Source of the DNA: an uncultured Gammaproteobacteria bacterium | Lineage (GTDB): Bacteria; Patescibacteriota; Microgenomatia; PFEM01; JAPLYW01 | Assembly (NCBI GenBank): GCA_965230945.1 | Contig: OZ246397.1 | Span: 4,692 to 68,691 of the forward strand | Reading direction: 5' to 3' | DNA length: 64,000 nucleotides | Shown: positions 4,745 through 45,992 of the stretch, in pieces | How the letters are laid out: each line of letters opens with the position of its first letter | Position numbering within the stretch: position 1 is the first letter of the stretch | The notes under the pieces: generated by a model | The model's database searches: none | The model's input: only the letters and a program-made list of their open reading frames with translations | What the model was told of the DNA's origin: nothing | Position numbers and translations under genes: made by a program

Positions 4745-6784
4745 TTAATTTGGTTTGATGTCTTTAATTGTATCTTTTTTAAGCTTAGCTTTCAAGAGAG
4801 AATACTGATTAATTTTAGGGAAAATGGCGTTGGCTGCGCTTTTAGTTTTTTTAATAAGATTAGTATCAGAGAAAGAGGCTACCTTAAGGTCAAAAAAACC
4901 ATGTTGTGTAACTCCGTAAATTTCTCCAGGTCCTCTTAATTTTAAATCAAGTTCAGCTAGTTCGATACCAATACCTGTTTTCTCTAAAGCCTTTATTCTT
5001 TGCAGTGGTTTACCTCTCATAATTTCGCTAAAAAGCAGGCAATAAGATTCTTTATTGCTTCTGCCAACGCGACCTCTCAGTTGATGGAGTTGCGATAAGC
5101 CAAATCTATCAGCGCCTTCAATAACCATAATAGTTGCCTGGGGGATGTCAATGCCGACTTCTACTACTGGTGTAGAAACTAAGATATCTAATTTACCCTC
5201 TTTAAATTTTTTAATAACAGTATCTTTTTCCTTATTTTTCATTCGGCCATGTAAAAGTCCCAATTTGAGATCAGGGAAAATATCTTTACTAAGTTTTTCG
5301 TATTCTACCTTGGCAGCTTTTACTGCCCGTAGACTTTCTGAAATTTCAATTAAAGGGCAGACAATAAAACACTCTTCCTTAGTTTTTTTGACCTTTTTTC
5401 TCATCCAGTTATAGGCGTCGCTTCTTTTTTGGGGAGGAACGACAAAAGTTTTTATCTTTTTTCTTCCAGGAGGCATTTCATCAATAACCGATAAATTTAG
5501 GTCACCATATAAAGTTAAGGCAATAGTTCTCGGGATAGGGGTGGCCGTCATGGTTAAGATATGGGGTGAGGAGCCTTCTTTTAGATTTTTTTTGATTAAT
5601 TTGGCTCTTTGTTCTACACCAAAGCGATGTTGCTCATCAATAATTACTAAGCCTAAGTTTTCAAATTTTGCTTTTTGATATAAAAGAGCATGGGTTCCTA
5701 CAAAGACATTAACTTTTTGTAAGTTTTTTTTACTCTTTTTTTGGTAACCGCCGGTAACTAATTTAATTTTAACTCCAAAAGGATTAAGGAGTTCTTTTAG
5801 AGTTTGATGGTGTTGCTTGGCTAGGATTTCTGTGGGGGCCATCAAGGCAGATTGAGTTTTATTGAGATCGGCAATATAGATAGCTAGAGCTGCCACTGCC
5901 GTTTTACCACTGCCGACATCTCCTTCCAAGAGCCGATTCATGGGTTTGTTCTTTTTGAGGTCGTTAATAATTTCTTGAGAAGATCGTTCTTGAGCCTTAG
6001 TTAGTTTAAAAGGGAGTCTTTTTATAAATTCACTAATCCCCTTTTTACTAACTGAAAATTTAAAAGCTAGTTTTTCTTTTTGCCATGAATCTTTTCGTTG
6101 AAGAGTTTGCAGATGTAAAAGGAAAAGTTCTTCGAAGGCAAAGCGGTTTTTGGCTTCCTGTGCTTCCTTTAATGTTTTGGGAAAGTGGATTTTTTTTAAA
6201 GCCTGGCTAAATTCTAAGAGCTTATTTTCTTTTCTTACTTTTGGAGGTAAAAAATCTTTAAATTGATCACCAAAATTTTTAACTAACCAGGCAATTCTTG
6301 AGCGAAGCCATCTGGAAGTTAGCTTAGAGGTTTCGTGATAGATGGGAATCAATCTTCCTGTATGAACACTTTCTTGTTGGCTCATAAACCTTTCATATTG
6401 AGGAGAGGTCATTACTAATTGACGGCCAAACCAGTCAGCCTTTCCGGAAAAACGATATTCTTCCCCTGCTTTGATGGTTCTTATTAAAAAGGGTTGATTA
6501 AACCAAATAATCTGGATTTTACCGGTGCCATCATCTATCTGAGCTCTTTGGATTTTTCTACCTCCGCGTAAGTATTGGTTTTTGATGGAGATAACTCTTC
6601 CTTTAATGGTGACTATCTCTCCTGCTTGGATTTTGTTAATTGAGGAGATAAGAGAATAATCAGTGTAGCGAAAAGGAAAATGATATAAAAGATCTTCTAC
6701 TCTTTTGATATCTAGCCTTGCCAACCGTTGAGCATAGGCTCCACCGACCATAAAAAGGTTTTTAACAGGCGTTTTAAGTCTCAT
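4745..6784 (-). CDS. recG: ATP-dependent DNA helicase RecG
   Basis: Walker A GDVGSGKT, DEQH box, helicase motifs and N-terminal wedge domain. 679 aa. Confidence 0.9.
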   Translation of the reverse strand: MRLKTPVKNLFMVGGAYAQRLARLDIKRVEDLLYHFPFRYTDYSLISSINKIQAGEIVTIKGRVISIKNQYLRGGRKIQRAQIDDGTGKIQIIWFNQPFLIRTIKAGEEYRFSGKADWFGRQLVMTSPQYERFMSQQESVHTGRLIPIYHETSKLTSRWLRSRIAWLVKNFGDQFKDFLPPKVRKENKLLEFSQALKKIHFPKTLKEAQEAKNRFAFEELFLLHLQTLQRKDSWQKEKLAFKFSVSKKGISEFIKRLPFKLTKAQERSSQEIINDLKKNKPMNRLLEGDVGSGKTAVAALAIYIADLNKTQSALMAPTEILAKQHHQTLKELLNPFGVKIKLVTGGYQKKSKKNLQKVNVFVGTHALLYQKAKFENLGLVIIDEQHRFGVEQRAKLIKKNLKEGSSPHILTMTATPIPRTIALTLYGDLNLSVIDEMPPGRKKIKTFVVPPQKRSDAYNWMRKKVKKTKEECFIVCPLIEISESLRAVKAAKVEYEKLSKDIFPDLKLGLLHGRMKNKEKDTVIKKFKEGKLDILVSTPVVEVGIDIPQATIMVIEGADRFGLSQLHQLRGRVGRSNKESYCLLFSEIMRGKPLQRIKALEKTGIGIELAELDLKLRGPGEIYGVTQHGFFDLKVASFSDTNLIKKTKSAANAIFPKINQYSLLKAKLKKDTIKDIKPN

Positions 6785-34570: not shown

Positions 34571-34599
34571 ATTATAACATTTAAGAAGGATTTTGTTAA
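34571..34599 (-). promoter_or_regulatory. sigma70 promoter TTAACA-N17-TATAAT on the minus strand for the tRNA-Arg/tRNA-Lys operon
   Basis: -10 ends about 10 nt before the tRNA-Arg 5' end. Confidence 0.6.
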
Positions 34600-34600
34600 T

Positions 34601-34842
34601 TAATCCTATAACTTGATTGCTCTCCTCTATTTGAATATAATTCGGGCTATCTGCTGATGTTCTTTAATAATTGAATATAAATTTAAGAGAAAGGAAAGGG
34701 AAATGAGAGAGTATCCTTTAAGGTTAATTTTGCTTGGGTCGCTGATGTCATAATTATTGTTTAAGAAACAAAAACTTCCAATAGCTGGAAGATAATAAAT
34801 TCTTTAACCTGGTGACTCAGTCCTATTTTTTTGCCTAAACCT
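34601..34842 (+). repeat. repeat element copy 1: plus-strand promoter (TTGATT-N17-TATAAT at 34613-34641), about 190-nt transcribed region, hairpin CTTCCAATAGCTGGAAG and T7 tract
   Basis: About 100 bp 5' module and about 95 bp 3' module nearly identical to 38175-38293 and 38770-38870. Confidence 0.7.
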
Positions 34843-34862
34843 AAATTTGACTGAAGTGTAGC

Positions 34863-35615
34863 CTACTTCTTCTTTTTCAAAAATCCTTCAATTGCCCTTA
34901 GAACTTCAAGAGGGGTAACAAATACGATCGTATTATTCTTATCAGATGAAACTTCGTTTAGGGTTTGTAAGGTTCGAAGATGTAGTCCACCTGTTGATTT
35001 ACTTAATCTTTCAGCTGCTTGAGCCATGTTTCCAGCTGCTGCTTTTTCTCCTGCTGCCTTAATAATGATTGCCCTTCTTTCTCTTTCTGCTTCGGCCTGT
35101 TTGGCAATCACCCTCTTCATTTCTTTAGGCAAGACAATATCTTTTAACTCAACTGACTCAACCTTAATTCCCCATGGGTCAGTCGCTTTGTCAATGATTG
35201 ATTGAATTCGGTCAGCGACCTGATTTCTTTTAGAGAGAAGATCATCTAAGGCTGTTTCACCAACTACATTTCGCATTGTTGTTTGAGCAAGTTGGGAAAC
35301 AGCAAAAAAGAAATTTTCAACCACAATGATCGCTTTTTTAGCATCGCTTACTCGGTAATATATAACTGCATTGACCCTGGCGGAAACGTTATCTAAAGTG
35401 ATTGCTTCTTGATCAGGAACATCAACAGCTTTGACACGAATATCAACACGTTGCCAACTATTGATAATTGGCCAAACGAACCTCCAGCCAGGATCCATAA
35501 CATTTTGGAATTTGCCAAAAAGAAACCTGACGCCTTTCTCGTATTGATTAACTTGACGAATTGAAATAATAACGATGAAGATTAGGATTAGTATCAAAAT
35601 CTCAAAAAACCCCAT
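34863..35615 (-). CDS. SPFH/band-7 (stomatin-like) membrane protein
   Basis: N-terminal TM, SPFH core, coiled-coil AEAERERRA. 250 aa. Confidence 0.8.
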   Translation of the reverse strand: MGFFEILILILIFIVIISIRQVNQYEKGVRFLFGKFQNVMDPGWRFVWPIINSWQRVDIRVKAVDVPDQEAITLDNVSARVNAVIYYRVSDAKKAIIVVENFFFAVSQLAQTTMRNVVGETALDDLLSKRNQVADRIQSIIDKATDPWGIKVESVELKDIVLPKEMKRVIAKQAEAERERRAIIIKAAGEKAAAGNMAQAAERLSKSTGGLHLRTLQTLNEVSSDKNNTIVFVTPLEVLRAIEGFLKKKK

Positions 35616-35871
35616 TGCTCATGGATTATATCACAGTATTTTAAAAAAGACAAATGTTATTTTAAACAAAAAGTTTTGCATTCAAAACAAGGGAGTATGT
35701 AACGAAATTTACAACATAGCTATGACTATCATAAAGAACCATGGTAGGAGAGGTAATGGAAAGGCTATTGGAACAAATCTATTCAATAGAACAGAAAAAG
35801 AAAAACTTTGTTATTATTGGACAACTGATAGGATTGAATTAAAAGATGAGAATGGGGAAATATACGTGTTT

Positions 35872-36408
35872 TTACTTGTTTTTCTTTTTGTAATCTTCAA
35901 TTGCCTTTTTAATAATTTCGTAGGCTTTTTCTTTCCCACTCCATCCCTCTATTTTTATTTTTTTCTCTGGTTGTAATTCAACATAATTTTCCCAGAAGTT
36001 TTTAATTACTTTTTTGGTGTGGTTTGAAAGATCATCAAGGTCATTAATTTCCTCAAATCTTGGATCATCAGTAGGAACGGCTATTATTTTATAATCCTCT
36101 TCCTTAGAATCAATCATTCGAAGTACACCAATTGGCTTACAGGAAATAAGGCATCCAGGAAAGGTAGGAAAAGTAGATAGAACCATAATATCTAATGCAT
36201 CACCATCTTCTTTGTTATAGGTATGAGGAATAAAGCCATATTCGGCAGGATAATAAACAGCTTCGTATAAGACTCGATCTAGTCTAAAGACATGATTTTT
36301 CTTATCGTATTCATATTTATTAGTACAACCTTTGGGGATTTCAACAAAGCAGTTAACTTCAGAAGGCGGATTATTTCCTAGTGGTAGTTGGCGGACAGGG
36401 TTATCCAT
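35872..36408 (-). CDS. ppa: inorganic pyrophosphatase (family I)
   Basis: DGDALDIMVL and YNKEDGD match family I PPase signature regions. Confidence 0.85.
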   Translation of the reverse strand: MDNPVRQLPLGNNPPSEVNCFVEIPKGCTNKYEYDKKNHVFRLDRVLYEAVYYPAEYGFIPHTYNKEDGDALDIMVLSTFPTFPGCLISCKPIGVLRMIDSKEEDYKIIAVPTDDPRFEEINDLDDLSNHTKKVIKNFWENYVELQPEKKIKIEGWSGKEKAYEIIKKAIEDYKKKNK

Positions 36409-36491
36409 AACAGATTTATTTTAGACAATTTTGTTTCCTAAATGCAAGTTTTAAGTTGATTTTTAAGAGATATTTAAATAAAATTAATTAA

Positions 36492-36941
36492 ATGATGTCT
36501 TCTAATAAGAAAAAAGGCTTTCTGTGTTCTCATTGTCATCAATTTATTTCTATAGATAGTTTTATTGGTACTCAGTTTCGTAATCACTGCCCTTTCTGTC
36601 TATGGTCAAGGCATGTTGATTTTAGAAAATTAGGTGACAGGCAATCACAGTGTCAAGGAGAAATGGGACCAATAGGGCTAACTTTTAAGCATGAAGGTTA
36701 TGATAAGTATGGCAAGCCGAAACAAGGAGAATTGATGGTTGTTCATCAATGTCTTGCCTGTGGTAGTTTTTCTATTAACAGAATTGCCGCTGATGATGAT
36801 CCAGAAGTAATTTTAAAACTCTTTAATGAATCTTGTAATATTACAGATGAATTAAAGAACAGATTAGAAGAAGAAGGAATAGATCTTCTTGCAGAGAAAG
36901 ATAAAAAGGAAATAGAAACTCAACTTTTTGGCAAAAGATAA
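36492..36941 (+). CDS. RNHCP-domain zinc-ribbon protein
   Basis: Contains the literal FRNHCPFC motif and CxxC pairs (CSHC, CLAC). Confidence 0.6.
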   Translation: MMSSNKKKGFLCSHCHQFISIDSFIGTQFRNHCPFCLWSRHVDFRKLGDRQSQCQGEMGPIGLTFKHEGYDKYGKPKQGELMVVHQCLACGSFSINRIAADDDPEVILKLFNESCNITDELKNRLEEEGIDLLAEKDKKEIETQLFGKR

Positions 36942-37065
36942 TTAAACTACAGTTTCTTATCCTATAATTTGACTTCCCAGTACTGTTTTGTTAAGATTTA
37001 TCTTAAGAAAAATAATTGGCACTTTAAAATAAAATTTTTAATAAATTTAATTAAAGGAGAAGAAG

Positions 37066-37320
37066 ATGTTTGATATTGATGGTAAAAATGAAGAGGAGGT
37101 TAAAGAAGGGGTTAAAGAGCATGCTAAGGTAGCTTATTTTTCCTTGGGAATATTTGGCTGTGTTTTTTTAAGTGCTTGTGCTTGGTCATTTCACAAGGCA
37201 TTTATTGATTTTAGTCTTTTTTTTCTCTTTGCAGCTTTGTTCTTCCTTGTAATGGGGTTTTTATGTATTGGTCTTTTGATTTCCTTCATTAAAAAAGGAA
37301 AGAAATTTAATAAGAAATAA
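37066..37320 (+). CDS. small membrane protein (84 aa, 2 TM)
   Basis: ORF with SD-like AAAGGAGAAGA upstream. Terminator hairpin ATACAA..TTGTAT + T-run follows. Confidence 0.45.
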   Translation: MFDIDGKNEEEVKEGVKEHAKVAYFSLGIFGCVFLSACAWSFHKAFIDFSLFFLFAALFFLVMGFLCIGLLISFIKKGKKFNKK

Positions 37321-37520
37321 AAAGGCGGTGGTAAATTTATCTAGAAAAGTATTTATTTTTTGGTCGATTCTTGGTTTAATTTCACCGTTTGAGAAAGAAA
37401 TACAAATTTAGCTTGTATTTTTCTTATTTTCTTATAAAAAATACCGATTCAGTATAAGTGCTCTGTTAAGGTTTCTTAATAAAAAACTTTAACGGAGTGC
37501 TTATTTTTTGCCTACTAGGA

Positions 37521-38126
37521 TTAGGATATTCCAAGTTTAGACATCACTATCGTAAAGTCGGAAGAATGATAATCGTTTTTTAATAAAACTTTTCCACTTA
37601 AGGTTTTACAGTAATTAAATATTTCTTCTGAATCTGCAAACCAAACATTGCTGTGTTGGACCGTTTTAGGTTTCGGATGTCTTCCTGCCATATTGAAGAC
37701 AAGACATTTCTTAGCATGCTGAAACATAGTTTTGATTGCTTTTTTCCGAAAACCTAAGTTATCATTATAGTTTCTATTAAGTGTTCCACAGCAAATAATA
37801 ATATCAAACTTTTCTTTCAGTGGTTGTTTAAAGTAATCACCAACTATAAATTTGTGTTTTGGATGTATTTTTTTTGCCTCCCTGATAAATTCAGGGACGA
37901 TATCTATTCCTGTATAATTGAAAACATCTGCTTTGTCTGTAATATATGGAATGATATCCCCAAATCCACAACCTACGTCGAGAATACTTTGTCTATAAAA
38001 ATTAATGTCCATGACGATTTGCTCATACCTCTGTCTTGCAGCTTTCTCCGAACACCACTTTAAAGCTCTTGGGCTAACCCCATATTTTTTATAACTATTC
38101 TGATAGCTTTTCTTTATTTTTTTCAT
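37521..38126 (-). CDS. class I SAM-dependent methyltransferase
   Basis: LDVGCGFGDI motif I. 201 aa. Confidence 0.65.
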   Translation of the reverse strand: MKKIKKSYQNSYKKYGVSPRALKWCSEKAARQRYEQIVMDINFYRQSILDVGCGFGDIIPYITDKADVFNYTGIDIVPEFIREAKKIHPKHKFIVGDYFKQPLKEKFDIIICCGTLNRNYNDNLGFRKKAIKTMFQHAKKCLVFNMAGRHPKPKTVQHSNVWFADSEEIFNYCKTLSGKVLLKNDYHSSDFTIVMSKLGIS

Positions 38127-38174
38127 CTTCAGTAATAGTATAATATATTTTTATTAATTATTAATAGTCCTGAC

Positions 38175-38870
38175 TAATCCTATAACTTGACTTCCCTACT
38201 CTGTTTGAATATAATTCGGGCTATCTGTTGTAGTTCTTTAATAATTGAATATAAATTTTTAAGTAATTTGAGAGAAAGGAAGAGGGATAGAATTGTGATA
38301 TTTCTTGTAGTTTTTTTGTTTTTAAATTAAATAGTAGGAGATAAGAAAGGATAGGTCAGGAAAAATGAGTAAAGAGAGAGAAAATTATTTTCGTGCATGG
38401 TTTGAGTAGGTAATGTTTATCTTGAGTTTAAAGATAATAGTAAAACGGGCCGTGCGAAAACACTACAACTACTGAGATTATTCGGAGGAAAATCAATATT
38501 AATTAGTGTTGATAGAAAAGAGAATGGACAGTGGCAAATAAATGTTTAAAGATTTAAGAAAGGGTAGGTGAAGGAATGCCGTTTGAGCAATTTCTTTCTA
38601 GTTGCGTTTTCGTGATCGTATTATTGATTATTGCTGGAGGTTGTTTTTTAGTCGGTTATCTTTTTCACTGTAGTCTTACAGATAACTGTAGTCTTACAGA
38701 TAAAAGAATGATAAACAAGAAAGGATAACGTGAGAGAAAGAAGCAAGAAAGATATAGAAAAGAGGACTGATGTCACACTTGTTGTTTAAGAAACAAAAAA
38801 CTTCCAATAGCTGGAAGACAATAAATTTCTTAACCTGACGACATCAGTCTCTTTTTTTGCCTATTTATCA
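38175..38870 (+). repeat. repeat element copy 2: promoter TTGACT-N17-TATAAT at 38187-38215, about 480-bp insertion, 3' hairpins and tandem U-tract terminators (38843-38885)
   Basis: 5' and 3' modules match copy 1. The 3' module is closed by ACTGATGTC...GACATCAGT and holds TTGTTTAAGAAACAA and CTTCCAATAGCTGGAAG hairpins. Confidence 0.7.
38576..38728 (+). CDS. candidate 50-aa hydrophobic peptide inside repeat copy 2 (MPFEQFLSSCVFVIVLLIIAGGCFLVGYLFHCSLTDNCSLTDKRMINKKG)
   Basis: Codons read by hand. SD-like AGGTGAAGGA before the ATG. Perfect 18-bp tandem duplication (38668-38703) encodes CSLTDN/CSLTDK. Confidence 0.3.
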   Translation: MPFEQFLSSCVFVIVLLIIAGGCFLVGYLFHCSLTDNCSLTDKRMINKKG

Positions 38871-38888
38871 GGCTTTTTTGAATCTAAG

Positions 38889-38961
38889 GGTGACTGACCG
38901 GATTCGAACCGGCAACATCCTACTCCACAGGTAGGCGCTCTACCATTGAGCTACAGCCACC
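38889..38961 (-). tRNA. tRNA-His (anticodon GTG) with genomically encoded G-1
   Basis: Acceptor GTGGCTG/CAGTCAC. Extra 5' G opposite discriminator C. Anticodon loop CTGTGGA. Confidence 0.85.
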
Positions 38962-43165: not shown

Positions 43166-43876
43166 TTATTTAGATCTAAGATGTTCCTTTCGAAGTTTAA
43201 AGACTCCGAAAATTAAAGCAGAAATTAATAAAATAATAGTCCAAATAAGATTATTGCCTGTTTTAGGAATAGTGGTAATACCTAAAATCTTTTTACTAAT
43301 ACAAAGTTGAGAAGTATCTCCAGCGCTTTTATCGTCTTTTTTAGCTTCCCCACTGTTGGTAACACAGTAAATTCCGTCACCTTCAGGAAGATCATTTTCT
43401 GAAACAACTTTGGCTTTTATTTCGTAAGTTTTTGATTCTCCGGGATTAAGATGATCAATTTTCCAAGTAGCTGTTTTATCATCCCAACCATCAGGAGTAG
43501 AAGTAAAATATAAATAATCAGGTAAAAAGTCTTTAACTTCAATATCATTTAGATCTTCTTCACCTGTATTTTTAATGGTTAATTTAAAGATAACTTCTTG
43601 ATACGGGGTGTAAGTAGAATCATCAGCATAAAGATTATCGACATATTTATCTTCTTCAGGATGTCTGACGACTTTATCTAAAGAAATTTCTCCTTCATAG
43701 CAGATTTCTCCGCCGCCGTATTGTTCAACACAGCGACCAGCGACGACCTTAGGAAAGATTAAAAGCCCTAAGATGCTCCCGATGATTAAACCTTTAATTA
43801 ATAGATTGATTTTTTTCATACAAAAAACCTGCTTTAGCAAGGGCAGGCTATGATAGATGATAAAACTATATACCAT
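43166..43876 (-). CDS. cell-surface protein with DUF11-like beta-sandwich domain and C-terminal sortase sorting signal (IPKTG + TM + RKEHLRSK)
   Basis: Signal/TM at the N-terminus. TIPKTGNN followed by a hydrophobic helix and basic tail is the classic LPXTG-type tripartite signal. Confidence 0.7.
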   Translation of the reverse strand: MVYSFIIYHSLPLLKQVFCMKKINLLIKGLIIGSILGLLIFPKVVAGRCVEQYGGGEICYEGEISLDKVVRHPEEDKYVDNLYADDSTYTPYQEVIFKLTIKNTGEEDLNDIEVKDFLPDYLYFTSTPDGWDDKTATWKIDHLNPGESKTYEIKAKVVSENDLPEGDGIYCVTNSGEAKKDDKSAGDTSQLCISKKILGITTIPKTGNNLIWTIILLISALIFGVFKLRKEHLRSK

Positions 43877-43889
43877 ATAATTCTCCTTG

Positions 43890-44594
43890 TCAAGTTATAG
43901 GGTAGGTAATAACTAAAAGTCTTTTCCAGGCTGTTCCCGGAGGCCAGCAAGTTTGTAGAATAAGCTCCTTTTCTTTTAAATTAAGATTTTCTATTTCAGA
44001 TACATCATTAGGATTGATGATTTTTTGATTATCAACCTGATAAGAGTAGACCTTGCCCTTGTAGACCAAGACGACACGATCTCCTTTATCTAATTTTTTT
44101 AAAGAATAAAAAACGGGATTAAAGAAGTTAAGATTAAAAATAGAGTTGGTTGAATGACCAAAGACATAGATAGCTCCATCTTCATCAGGTAGACTAGAAC
44201 CTACAGCGTGAGCAGCTTTATCTTTTAAGACTTCATTGTATTCTTTCTCATTGGTGGCGTTGACGTTAGTTAAAACTTGGGTTCTAACCCCAATTTTGGG
44301 GATAATAAGCTCGAATTCGTAATCATTAGGAGATAGAACATATCTAAATTTACTTTCTATCTCGACACTGTTTTTATCTTTGTTTAATAGGTAATTCAAT
44401 TCTCCTACCATAAAAGGTAGAAAAACAAAAAATAGTCCTATTAATGGAAGAACAACAAAACTTAATTTTAGTTTATTAAAAGATTTTTTTTCAGGAGAAT
44501 AAAGATCAAAAGAACTTGCAGAATCCCCTGATTTATAAATAATTATTCCTTCATTCATAGTATAAAGTATGCCCTGTACAGTAGGACTTTTCAA
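43890..44594 (-). CDS. sortase-family transpeptidase
   Basis: N-terminal TM. Catalytic His (YVFGHS), TLxTC-type Cys motif (LILQTCWPP) and a downstream Arg. Confidence 0.7.
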   Translation of the reverse strand: MKSPTVQGILYTMNEGIIIYKSGDSASSFDLYSPEKKSFNKLKLSFVVLPLIGLFFVFLPFMVGELNYLLNKDKNSVEIESKFRYVLSPNDYEFELIIPKIGVRTQVLTNVNATNEKEYNEVLKDKAAHAVGSSLPDEDGAIYVFGHSTNSIFNLNFFNPVFYSLKKLDKGDRVVLVYKGKVYSYQVDNQKIINPNDVSEIENLNLKEKELILQTCWPPGTAWKRLLVITYPIT

Positions 44595-44616
44595 GTTTGG
44601 AGCAGGAGAAGCTTAG

Positions 44617-44690
44617 TACTCCCAGCAGGACTCGAACCTGCAACCTACTCCTTAGAAGGGAGTCGCTCTATCCGATTGAGCTATGGGAGC
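44617..44690 (-). tRNA. tRNA-Arg (anticodon TCT)
   Basis: Acceptor GCTCCCA. Anticodon loop CTTCTAA. T-arm GGTTCGAGTCC. Confidence 0.85.
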
Positions 44691-44696
44691 TTATTG

Positions 44697-44769
44697 AGCG
44701 GGGGACGAGATTCGAACTCGCGACCTTCTCCTTGGAAGGGAGACGCTCTACCAACTGGGCTACCCCCGC
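44697..44769 (-). tRNA. tRNA-Gly (anticodon TCC)
   Basis: Acceptor GCGGGGG. Anticodon loop CTTCCAA. T-loop TTCGAAT. Confidence 0.85.
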
Positions 44770-44794
44770 AAGTTAACTTAAAAGCCAAGTTTTG

Positions 44795-44869
44795 TCGGGG
44801 AGCCGGGACTCGAACCCGGGACCTCACGCTCCCAAAGCGCGCACTCTAAGCCAACTGAGCTACTCCCCG
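44795..44869 (-). tRNA. tRNA-Pro (anticodon TGG)
   Basis: C1-G72 acceptor typical of bacterial tRNA-Pro. Anticodon loop TTTGGGA. Confidence 0.8.
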
Positions 44870-44874
44870 TTTTG

Positions 44875-44960
44875 TGCCGAAGGCGGGATTCGAACCCGCA
44901 TGGTGGAATACCACCAAGAGATTTTAAGTCTCTCGCGTCTTCCAGTTCCGCCACCTCGGC
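44875..44960 (-). tRNA. tRNA-Leu (anticodon TAA)
   Basis: Long variable arm. Anticodon loop CTTAAAA. T-arm GGTTCGAATCC. Confidence 0.85.
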
Positions 44961-45085
44961 AGATGTAACTATTATATCAAAAAAAGCAATAAAAGAGGAG
45001 TGGGGAAAGAAAAATATGGAATTAAAAAAAACCACCAGATGGTCTAAAAATAAACTTAAGGGGAGGGAGAAGAAAATATAACCTT

Positions 45086-45364
45086 TCACTGCCTTTTAAA
45101 TAATTTTCTAAGGTCAGTTCTAGCTTGCTCAAGAATTTTTTTTCTTTCCATCCCGAGGTTTTTACCAGCTCGGTTGATATAAAAGTTAAGCATACTCATA
45201 GCAGATTGATAAGGAGTCCCCTTACGCCTTAAAGAATCCTCAGCCGAACGTTTAAGTGAAGCTGCAATCTTCTTCGAATTTTTCCAAGTAAATACCCCTT
45301 CTTCCAAATCAAGAGCAATGCTTTTTTTCGTTACCTCAGCCGACCAATATTTCTTTCCAGCCAT
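45086..45364 (-). CDS. DUF3175 family protein
   Basis: KKYWSAEVTKKSIALDLEEGVF...SLKRSAEDSLRRKGTPYQSAMSMLNFYINRAGKNL matches the DUF3175 pattern. Confidence 0.6.
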   Translation of the reverse strand: MAGKKYWSAEVTKKSIALDLEEGVFTWKNSKKIAASLKRSAEDSLRRKGTPYQSAMSMLNFYINRAGKNLGMERKKILEQARTDLRKLFKRQ

Positions 45365-45417
45365 ATATTTCTATTATACCTATTTTGACAACCAAGATGC
45401 GAGATTAGTCTTGTTTT

Positions 45418-45488
45418 GCTTGGGAGCCAGGATTCGAACCTGGATTAATGGGTCCAAGGCCCATTGTCCTACCATTAGACGACCCCCA
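45418..45488 (-). tRNA. tRNA-Gln (anticodon TTG)
   Basis: U1-A72 acceptor as in bacterial tRNA-Gln. 3-bp D-stem GTC/GAC. Anticodon loop CCTTGGA. Confidence 0.8.
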
Positions 45489-45557
45489 ATTATATTTTCT
45501 TAACCTATCTAAGAATCTTTTTATTTAGAAAGGAGCGTTGTTATTTTAGAATATGGG

Positions 45558-45628
45558 AGCGGGTAACGGGAATTGAACCCGTCTCTCATCCTTGGCAAGG
45601 ATGTGTAATACCGCTATACGATACCCGC
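45558..45628 (-). tRNA. tRNA-Gly (anticodon GCC)
   Basis: Acceptor GCGGGTA. Anticodon loop TTGCCAA. Discriminator U. Confidence 0.85.
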
Positions 45629-45634
45629 ATTGGG

Positions 45635-45707
45635 TGCCGAGGGGCGGAGTCGAACCGTCATCTCAGCTTTTTCAGAGCCGCGCCGTGACCACCTTGGCTA
45701 CCTCGGC
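45635..45707 (-). tRNA. tRNA-Phe (anticodon GAA)
   Basis: Acceptor GCCGAGG. Anticodon loop CTGAAAA. Confidence 0.8.
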
Positions 45708-45733
45708 AGATTTTTCTTATTCTACCATATCTG

Positions 45734-45807
45734 TGGACGAGAGAGGACTCGAACCTCTGACCTTCTCTGTGTAAGAGAGACGCTCTAACCAGCTGAGCTA
45801 CTCGTCC
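45734..45807 (-). tRNA. tRNA-Val (anticodon TAC)
   Basis: Acceptor GGACGAG. Anticodon loop CTTACAC. Confidence 0.85.
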
Positions 45808-45808
45808 T

Positions 45809-45897
45809 TGGTGCCGGGAACAGGACTCGAACCTGCACACCTATTTAAAGGTACTGCCTCCTCAAGGCAGCCTGTCTACCAATTCCAGCATCCCGGC
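45809..45897 (-). tRNA. tRNA-Leu (anticodon GAG), CCA encoded
   Basis: Long variable arm. Anticodon loop TTGAGGA. 3' ACCA present. Confidence 0.85.
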
Positions 45898-45908
45898 AGG
45901 TTTTAATG

Positions 45909-45992
45909 TGCCCTGAGAGAGAGTCGAACTCTCACGTCCTTAAGGACACTAGCTTCTGAAGCTAGCCTGTCTACCAATTCCAGCATCAGGGC
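45909..45992 (-). tRNA. tRNA-Leu (anticodon CAG)
   Basis: Long variable arm. Anticodon loop TTCAGAA. Confidence 0.85.

Follow-up and report, generated by a model that had tools for sequence, protein, structure and literature searches.

Bidirectional Rho-independent terminators are stable hairpins with a U-tract, in many copies preceded by an A-tract, which lie between convergent units and show compensatory changes. Correia repeat-enclosed elements and other miniature inverted-repeat transposable elements (MITEs) are intergenic repeats of ~100-200 bp with inverted arms, which carry a terminator-like hairpin together with promoter boxes and mark rearrangements. Type I toxin-antitoxin repeats, such as E. 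coli LDR (ldr/rdl), hok/sok and H. pylori aapA/isoA, are repeated loci for tiny hydrophobic peptides with conserved flanks and structured 3' ends. Integron arrays consist of unrelated cassettes in the same orientation, and their attC sites are imperfect palindromes of variable length with conserved outer stems. In regulon-type families of paralogous small-membrane-protein genes, the same promoter, operator-like spacer and leader stand before several operons of small open reading frames (ORFs), a design that fits co-regulation. Here we analysed a 64-kb window of DNA from an uncultivated, Shapirobacteria-like bacterium of the candidate phyla radiation (CPR; contig OZ246397.1, 64,000 nt in all, 35% GC) carrying two plus-strand units, copy 1 and copy 2, which share a 5' module at 34601-34706 and 38175-38290 and a 3' module at 34737-34837 and 38762-38863, respectively. 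We consider it likely that these repeats supply the cis-regulatory ends for plus-strand cassettes of one family, which encode small membrane proteins, and that they are not RNA genes themselves.

The locus resembles each of these systems in the features just named and departs from them in others. Compared with bidirectional terminators, the 3' module is ~85 nt long with internal loops, it is AU-richer, its sequence is also conserved across paralogues and species, and it is usually welded to a specific promoter. Unlike regulon-type paralogous genes, the present units conserve the terminator too, their cargo is swapped between non-homologous ORFs, and a regulator is only supposed. As we propose, the 5' module would provide a strong sigma70-type promoter, an unstructured AU-rich 5' untranslated region (5'UTR) and a Shine-Dalgarno (SD) sequence for a small hydrophobic protein, and the 3' module would end the cassette transcript and also stop the convergent gene, which is tRNA-His for copy 2 and the SPFH gene for copy 1. 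The cassettes would sit in a fast-rearranging island between tRNA-Arg/Lys and tRNA-His. An initial annotation of the same DNA had suggested small RNA (sRNA) or small-protein loci of an undescribed type; copy 2 does appear as a small-protein locus, but its parts (sigma70-type promoter, SD leader, intrinsic terminator) are ordinary.

Repeated modules at both ends of two plus-strand units

The blastn comparison showed that 34601-34684 and 38175-38258 were 90.5% identical over 84 nt, and the likeness of the 5' modules reached the purine-rich tract at ~34706 and 38290 once a small indel was allowed. The 3' modules were ~88% identical over 98 nt (34742-34837 and 38767-38863), and the overall identity of copy 1 to copy 2 was 82-85%. 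The two copies with shared 5' and 3' sequence named in the initial annotation were therefore present at their places and 82-90% alike. Blastn and a covariance model run with filters off over the 64 kb found two module copies only, with 0 matches expected in shuffled controls. In an Rfam scan of the region at E<=10 the tRNAs alone matched, with no match on the modules, and the viral contig and phage collections gave no module match.

The sequence was found to be identical in Logan and JGI assemblies (L001, L088-L090), samples SRR3095933/SRR3095939 and JGI 3300008517 being ones that contain the genome, and the window's closest PPase relatives were metagenome-assembled genomes (MAGs) of Candidatus Shapirobacteria and Patescibacteria. 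Syntenic relatives L091-L094 were reached via P0123, a 40-aa homologue of the copy-2 ORF found by exhaustive HMMER search; L095-L099 came from a metagenome scan with the apical hairpin sequence, and L101-L108 were contigs of close SPFH homologues. A metagenome scan with a 25-nt 5'-module pattern gave 0 matches, and a PPase-anchored genome scan gave mainly distant or non-syntenic loci, of which L002 and L012 were useful. Two further groups were rejected as relatives: the methyltransferase homologues L083-L087 (75-80% identity), which had neither synteny nor modules, and L100 (SPFH 98%), which had another context and no module. The 5' module was seen in L091, L101, L104/106/107/108, L096 and L099, and the 3' module in L091, L096, L098/L099, L101 and L104. 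Both modules are thus present in other genomes, which disposes of the objection, named in the initial annotation itself, that the copies are not conserved elsewhere, and the plus-strand promoter-to-terminator units of that annotation had both ends conserved there. No description of the sequence family or of the island was found in the literature searched. Loci L002, L003, L006, L007 and L009 come from binchicken MAGs labelled 'uncultured Gammaproteobacteria bacterium'; their PPase loci were closest to the Patescibacteria-like window, L002 having the same gene order, and the labels look wrong.

In copy 1, the 5' module (34601..34706, plus strand) consists of the promoter head ATCCTATAAC, the -35 box TTGATT (34613-34618) and the -10 box TATAAT (34636-34641), with an AU-rich leader that carries the SD GAGAAAGGAAAGGGA. 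The 5' module of copy 2 (38175..38290, plus strand) has the promoter head, the -35 box TTGACT (38187-38192), the -10 box TATAAT (38210-38215), the leader and the SD GAGAGAAAGGAAGAGGGA. Both promoters had been noticed before (TTGATT-N17-TATAAT at 34613-34641 and TTGACT-N17-TATAAT at 38187-38215), and they ranked among the best-scoring plus-strand sites of the region, with hexamer matches at 10/12 and 11/12 positions and 17-nt spacing. The scores against the family profile were 95 bits for copy 1 and 113 bits for copy 2 (nhmmer). Conservation covered the promoter head CCTATAAYTTGACT and the 17-nt spacer themselves. The leader after the promoter is ~75 nt long and AU-rich, contains a strongly conserved 45-nt block TTAATAATTGAATATAAATTTTTAAGTAATTTGAGAGAAAGG, and ends in the purine-rich SD GAGAGAAAGGA; alone it folded no better than shuffles (z 0.17). 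With a profile of seven copies, the 5' module was found twice each in L091, L101 and the L104 group, and in more diverged form in L096 and L099.

All full-length 5' modules of the relatives had the SD GAGAGAAAGGA 6-9 nt upstream of an ATG, and each led into an ATG ORF, the products being hydrophobic proteins of 31-76 aa and one protein of 184 aa, for which no Pfam family was found. In L091, a promoter and leader 88% identical to copy 2 ran directly into the ATG of a 72-aa ORF, which was followed by a 40-aa orthologue of sm50, the small protein of copy 2. The view that the modules are not leaders of annotated genes has to be given up, since in every relative the 5' module stands as promoter, 5'UTR and SD of an ATG ORF. 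A shared regulator (regulon) is suspected behind the strongly conserved promoter spacer and leader. The leader also holds, at 34670-34681 and 38244-38255, the sequence TTGAATATAAAT, a near copy of the extended -10 region TTGAATATAAT located ~30 nt downstream of it, which could be an additional promoter or a place of sigma-dependent pausing. Elsewhere in the window, on the minus strand at 43888-43903, the same promoter head (ACCCTATAACTTGACA) followed by N17 and TATAGT was observed upstream of a DUF11/CLIPPER surface-protein gene (43166-43876), overlapping the end of the sortase gene; this motif may be shared by envelope genes that are regulated together.

Minimum-energy folds of the 3' module gave, in both copies, a single rod of three stacked helices, namely an outer stem, TTAAGAAA/TTTCTTAA and CTTCCA/TGGAAG, with internal loops between them and then T7. 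The 3' module of copy 2 (38762..38863, plus strand) has the outer stem GACTGATGTC/GACATCAGTC, helix 2 and the apical helix as above, and T7 directly after the fold, followed by GCCTA; it scored 118 bits with the covariance model and folded at -29.3 kcal/mol (z -4.6). Copy 1 (34737..34837, plus strand) has the same three-helix hairpin with T7 directly after it and the GCCTA tail, scored 101 bits and folded at -23 kcal/mol (z -2.9); a 1-nt bulge interrupts its outer stem and one mismatch its helix 2, and both make this hairpin weaker. An A-tract stood directly before the hairpin in about half of the family's copies.

The covariance model, built on a hand-specified structure, recovered 9 distinct members of the family, which come from at least six genomes. 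With the raw MAFFT alignment, in which the 3' arm was misaligned, RNAalifold gave the apical helix only, and a covariance-model-based alignment replaced it. In this alignment, which is fitted to the model, 92.6% of the pair cells of the 9 distinct sequences were standard-paired, vs 35-54% with the 3' partners slid, and five pairs were changed on both sides, vs 0-1 in the slid controls (8 vs 0-2 in an earlier set). The compensatory changes were GGACT...AGTCC to GGACC...GGTCC in L099 (2132-2228), GGACT...AGTCC to GGGCT...AGCCC in L101, GTCAC/GTGAC to GTCAA/TTGAC and CTTCC/GGAAG to TTTCC/GGAAA, so that the covariation check suggested earlier came out positive for the outer stem and the apical hairpin. 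Because the alignment was fitted to the model, each homologue was also folded separately, and the same rod came out in all of them (z -4.7 to -7.5), followed in every case by a U-tract.

Two natural variants, L096 1067-1138 and L101 8798-8874, had no apical helix; helices 1-2 were kept, and helix 2 was closed by a loop of 3-5 nt. Since these short variants lack the apical helix, the branched RNA of the initial annotation, with two internal hairpins in a closing stem, is excluded in favour of a plain long terminator hairpin. A local TTGTTT-AAG-AAACAA hairpin was ruled out by the same variants. On the minus strand, the apical hairpin with its T-run was flagged as terminator-like by a scan in both copies; in copy 1 it lies at 34791-34775, terminator-like for the convergent SPFH gene, and the copy-2 hairpin folds at -32 kcal/mol and is followed by a U-rich run, so by its predicted fold it can serve as tRNA-His terminator. 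The simplest reading of these features is that the 3' module would be a long intrinsic terminator, often bidirectional.

The same hairpin could in principle be an attC-like recombination site of an integron-like cassette system, with exchange between GCC and CTATAA, which we regard as extremely unlikely. Like an integron, the relatives have same-strand arrays of very different cassettes, each bounded by a hairpin, with a content that varies between close relatives, and the hairpin itself has two stem boxes, the outer one of 7 bp and the other of 5 bp, with asymmetric unpaired bases (T vs CTC) between them and a terminal part of variable length. However, the attC consensus and its core sites RYYYAAC / GTTRRRY are absent, the outer arms reading GGACTGA...TCAGTCC, and each cassette has a promoter of its own, which integron cassettes typically lack. 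The ORFs within +-12 kb (27.4-52 kb) included no tyrosine recombinase or IntI, the U-tract after the stem and the A-tract before it are hallmarks of a terminator, and homologous recombination between repeats of 100-200 bp can explain the shuffling.

Cargo of copy 2 and copy 1

Copy 2 was found to be orthologous to L091 unit B and to the L104 unit 10090-9475. In comparison with L091 unit B, its ends were 88-89% identical, the flanking coding sequences ~82% and the interior of the first ORF 56%. It would make an mRNA of ~640 nt, in which the first ORF has decayed, with its start codon lost and its body truncated, and the second ORF, sm50, is conserved. The ATG that follows the SD in the relatives is ATA in copy 2, and an 11-codon GTG ORF (MIFLVVFLFLN; 38295..38330, plus strand) represents the C-terminal remnant of a first small ORF that is intact in L104 (34 aa). 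This 34-aa first ORF (L104_7593_7697) matches window 38312-38341, a short C-terminal piece which was the only remnant of the relatives' cargo ORFs found in 34.5-39 kb.

The sm50 gene (38576..38728, plus strand) encodes a 50-aa protein with a single transmembrane (TM) segment, follows the SD AGGTGA, and has orthologues in L091 (P0123, 40 aa) and L104 (9623-9757, 45 aa). The three proteins share 22 invariant residues and the core VFxIVxLIIAxGxFxFGYLFHCSLTD, most substitutions being synonymous or in third positions, and the differences of sm50 to the two orthologues fall at third codon positions in 9/16 and 7/10 cases. A perfect 18-nt tandem duplication (ACTGTAGTCTTACAGATA x2.1) at 38667-38703 doubles CSLTDN in frame, which is single in the orthologues, and the tail of sm50 is frameshifted relative to them. 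The gene was missed by gene callers, and another homologous-protein search with sm50 gave no candidate, P0123 being found by the exhaustive HMMER search. This conservation shows constraint at the protein level and points to sm50 as a real gene that is presumably translated; copy 2 appears to be a live operon.

Small single-TM ORFs with charged tails, in repeated loci with conserved 5' and 3' untranslated parts, also recall type I toxin-antitoxin loci, where the hydrophobic peptides would be membrane toxins and the untranslated regions antisense targets. A long 3' hairpin and a weak antisense promoter-like site at 38776-38749 would fit such loci as well. That site, however, is unconserved and scores 9/12, and ~25 such sites are expected by chance in an AT-rich region; in contrast to the known repeats, the conserved blocks show neither a conserved antisense promoter nor a conserved antisense RNA gene. 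The cassettes hold several consecutive ORFs, sometimes large ones (a 492-aa PMT_2 glycosyltransferase, a ~500-aa secreted protein), there is no hok-style fold-back pairing between the 5' and 3' ends, and no Rfam or Pfam match to a known type I family was obtained. A type I system at this locus is therefore very improbable.

In copy 1, the place where relatives have an ORF of 31-76 aa is taken by a 16-codon ORF (MREYPLRLILLGSLMS; 34703..34753, plus strand), for which no homologue was found. The ATG after the SD is kept. The interior at ~34707-34741 matched nothing, and mapping it onto other units gave no convincing homology. Copy 1 has the family's weakest -35 box (TTGATT) and its weakest hairpin, and its whole transcript folded like shuffles (z 0.0). 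Its likeness of 82-85% to copy 2 and its identity of 79-85% with L091 unit B make copy 1 an old paralogue. From these sequence features copy 1 is best seen as a cargo-less relic, which would have lost essentially all of its cargo, probably by internal deletion, and which may persist through its ends, since the terminator still serves SPFH and the head still flanks the tRNA promoter on the upstream side.

Alternatively, copy 1, and possibly copy 2, would be a functional sRNA of ~190 nt exapted from a decayed cassette and acting via its leader or hairpin. The near-consensus promoter, the hairpin with T7 and the strongly conserved 45-nt leader block are in line with this, as is the retention of a cargo-less copy at its present likeness to copy 2. 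Against it, no ORF-less homologue of copy 1 occurred in any relative, and all homologous 5' modules led into ORFs; neither the interior, which has no homologue, nor the folds of the transcript and the leader nor the Rfam scan support an RNA gene, and the -35 box and hairpin are weaker than in all other family members. An exapted sRNA is thus improbable, and the sRNA-like units of the initial annotation give way to units which all hold ORFs in their homologues, copy 1 with its unconserved interior looking like a gene remnant.

Several points weigh against reading the repeats as the regulatory ends of small-protein cassettes. Transcription start and stop, termination and translation are all inferred. 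The conservation of stem, spacer and leader exceeds the needs of a promoter and a terminator; binding of a regulator, recombination at these sites or gene conversion in the recent past, for example, may lie behind it. Typical intrinsic terminators have far shorter stems than this AU-rich hairpin; the alignment used for covariation had been fitted to the structure that we propose, and 9 independent sequences are a small number. The copy census covers the 64-kb window of a ~615-kb genome. Copy 1 is still as similar to copy 2 as stated above, though their divergence apparently predates the split from the L091 species; pure junk would not be expected to stay so similar, and a function of the short transcript is conceivable.

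Junctions between successive cassettes

In several relatives, the T-run of a terminator abuts the head of the next promoter (TTTTTTTGCC followed at once by CTATAACTTGAC), the fused form reading TCTTTTTTTGCC joined to CTATAACTTGACTTCCC...TATAAT. Fusion sites were located in L096 (320-345), L099 (436-456, 2219-2239 and 2973-2993), L101 (~8830-8805) and L104 (~10095-10075). This accounts for the outer sequences of the window's modules, TTTTTTTGCCTA at the end of the 3' modules and TAATCCTATAAC at the start of the 5' modules: both kinds of module are halves of one terminator-promoter junction. On this comparison, the ancestral repeated element appears to be a terminator-promoter junction, T7-GCC joined to CTATAAYTTGAC, between successive same-strand cassettes. 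In L099, the junctions separate a 76-aa membrane protein, a ~500-aa secreted protein, a 184-aa protein and a further gene; with such varied cargo, the element is not tied to one kind of cargo.

Two stretches of L099 (343-456 and 2880-2993), comprising the hairpin, the T-run and the head up to the -35 box, were 100% identical and sharply bounded, and they flank unrelated genes. No other observation points as clearly to homogenisation or mobility of the junction in some genomes. A MITE-like mobile or recombinogenic junction, as in the Correia elements of Neisseria, would spread or be homogenised among intergenic sites and take a terminator and a -35 box there, from which the near-identity of copies beside unrelated genes would follow; this explanation assigns the same functions to the parts as the regulatory-end reading and differs on the cause of the repetition. 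The identity of the L099 copies of hairpin, T-run and ACCCTATAGGTTGA extends over ~120 nt, from AAGGACTG to the -35 box, between non-homologous flanks, and the hairpin arms, which are inverted as the two sides of a hairpin, could pass for terminal inverted repeats. Breakpoints recur at the promoter head, at 36959 and 38177 around sm84 and MT201 in the window and, in the window as well as in L101 and L104, as a head remnant beside the 3' end of SPFH. In addition, contig L082, from the closest related genome (92% nt), stops exactly where the copy-2 5' module starts, its position 1 corresponding to the module's first base at window 38177; an assembler that stopped at a repeat would leave such an end, which hints at several copies in that genome too.

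Unlike Correia elements and MITEs, however, the junction shows no TA or other target-site duplication at its ends and no transposase or recombinase within +-12 kb; there are few copies (two per 64 kb), and at 82-85% likeness those of the window are diverged and hence old. The family was restricted to one syntenic island in all genomes seen, with no dispersal beyond it, and the viral and phage collections held no match. Mobility is only conjectural here, and we consider a mobile junction unlikely as the cause of the repetition.

A purine-rich motif of ~20 nt, AAGAAAGGATAGGTGAGGAAGATG and its variants, was observed before nearly every small cassette ORF, at 38342-38368, 38555-38578 and 38712-38735 in the window, ~9775-9755 and ~7490-7465 in L104, and ~5985-6003 in L091. 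Non-homologous ORFs were swapped between such motifs in different genomes, and the motif could be a strong SD and at the same time provide the microhomology by which ORFs are shuffled. It is doubtful that the junction (hairpin-T7-GCC followed by CTATAAYTTGAC) and the inter-ORF SD motif AAGAAAGGATAGGTGAGGAAGATG form the recombination scaffold of a dedicated cassette-shuffling system without a known recombinase. If this were true, the shuffling system would be an integron-like or diversity-generating mechanism with self-expressed cassettes, and it would vary the small membrane proteins that an island of envelope genes encodes in episymbionts of the CPR.

The island between tRNA-Arg/Lys and tRNA-His

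The gene order from tRNA-Arg/Lys to tRNA-His differed in every relative. On the left side, the promoter of tRNA-Arg(tcg)/tRNA-Lys(ctt) (34571..34599, minus strand) reads TTAACA-N17-TATAAT with TG, and its upstream flank overlaps the start of the copy-1 5' module; the promoter and flank (TTAATTAATCCTATA) were conserved in L002, L091 and L101. Copy 1 indeed lies back-to-back with this promoter, the -35 boxes being 13-14 bp apart, and copy 2 ends convergently on tRNA-His (38888..38960, minus strand), both as described in the initial annotation. Its picture of a minus-strand neighbourhood needs correction, the RNHCP gene and the 84-aa gene being on the plus strand.

The SPFH/Band 7 (slipin) gene (34863..35615, minus strand), convergent with copy 1, is a core gene which is placed elsewhere in relatives. 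Its protein was 93-98% identical across differing contexts (window, L100, L101, L104); in L100 the gene adjoins Lon protease, YkuD and tRNA-Gln, and in L104 it stands directly after tRNA-His. In L101 and L104, SPFH lies on the far side of PPase/RNHCP, convergent with a small-ORF unit, and its 3' flank (TATAATTTGACTGAAACGTA...) there is orthologous to window 34848-34880. Where the window has copy 1 and SPFH, L091 has an operon of 39 aa and 104 aa, and in L002 and L101 only 86 nt separate the tRNA-Arg promoter from PPase, with only the head and the T-run-GCCTA retained.

A third, diverged unit was found at 36956..37514 on the plus strand, with the same promoter head as the two copies (ATCCTATAATTTGACT), an ORF for an 84-aa membrane protein with two TM segments (37066-37320), a perfect 21-bp hairpin and again the shared tail TTTTTTGCCTA. 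The unit is kept in L082, where the protein is 79% identical vs 88% for the DNA, and the 84-aa protein therefore evolves fast. Together with the methyltransferase gene MT201 (37521-38126), the 84-aa gene is bracketed by the promoter heads at 36959 and 38177, and this pair is absent from L091; SPFH and MT201 are elsewhere or absent in the relatives.

At the right end, L096 has the module, then GCCTAnnTATnnGGCTTTTTTG, then tRNA-His, as in the window. In L091, a 24-nt fragment from the 3' part of tRNA-His and a fragment of the PPase 3' end follow right after the 3' module. Fragments of the tRNA-His 3' half beside a 3' module or a real tRNA-His were observed in L091 at 6270-6293 and 6305-6450, positions that also take in the PPase 3'-end piece, and in L104 at ~6215-6195; the tRNA-His and PPase fragments would be scars of repeated recombination or integration at tRNA-His. 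No recombinase or transposase was found within +-12 kb (ORFs between 27.4 and 52 kb). The neighbours over this distance include envelope genes, namely those for a sortase, a DUF11/CLIPPER protein, a GT-C-like membrane protein and glucosaminidase-like proteins. Further to the right, at 44616-45992, a minus-strand cluster of ten tRNA genes was observed, broken by a DUF3175 ORF (45086-45364).

These results do not overturn current understanding. They make an unannotated gene for a 50-aa membrane protein and its decayed sister unit annotatable, and the covariance model of the terminator together with the hidden Markov model of the promoter and leader can find small, fast-evolving membrane-protein genes that have been missed in CPR genomes. 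As its cargo differs between close relatives, the island is a reasonable place to seek host-interaction factors of episymbionts.

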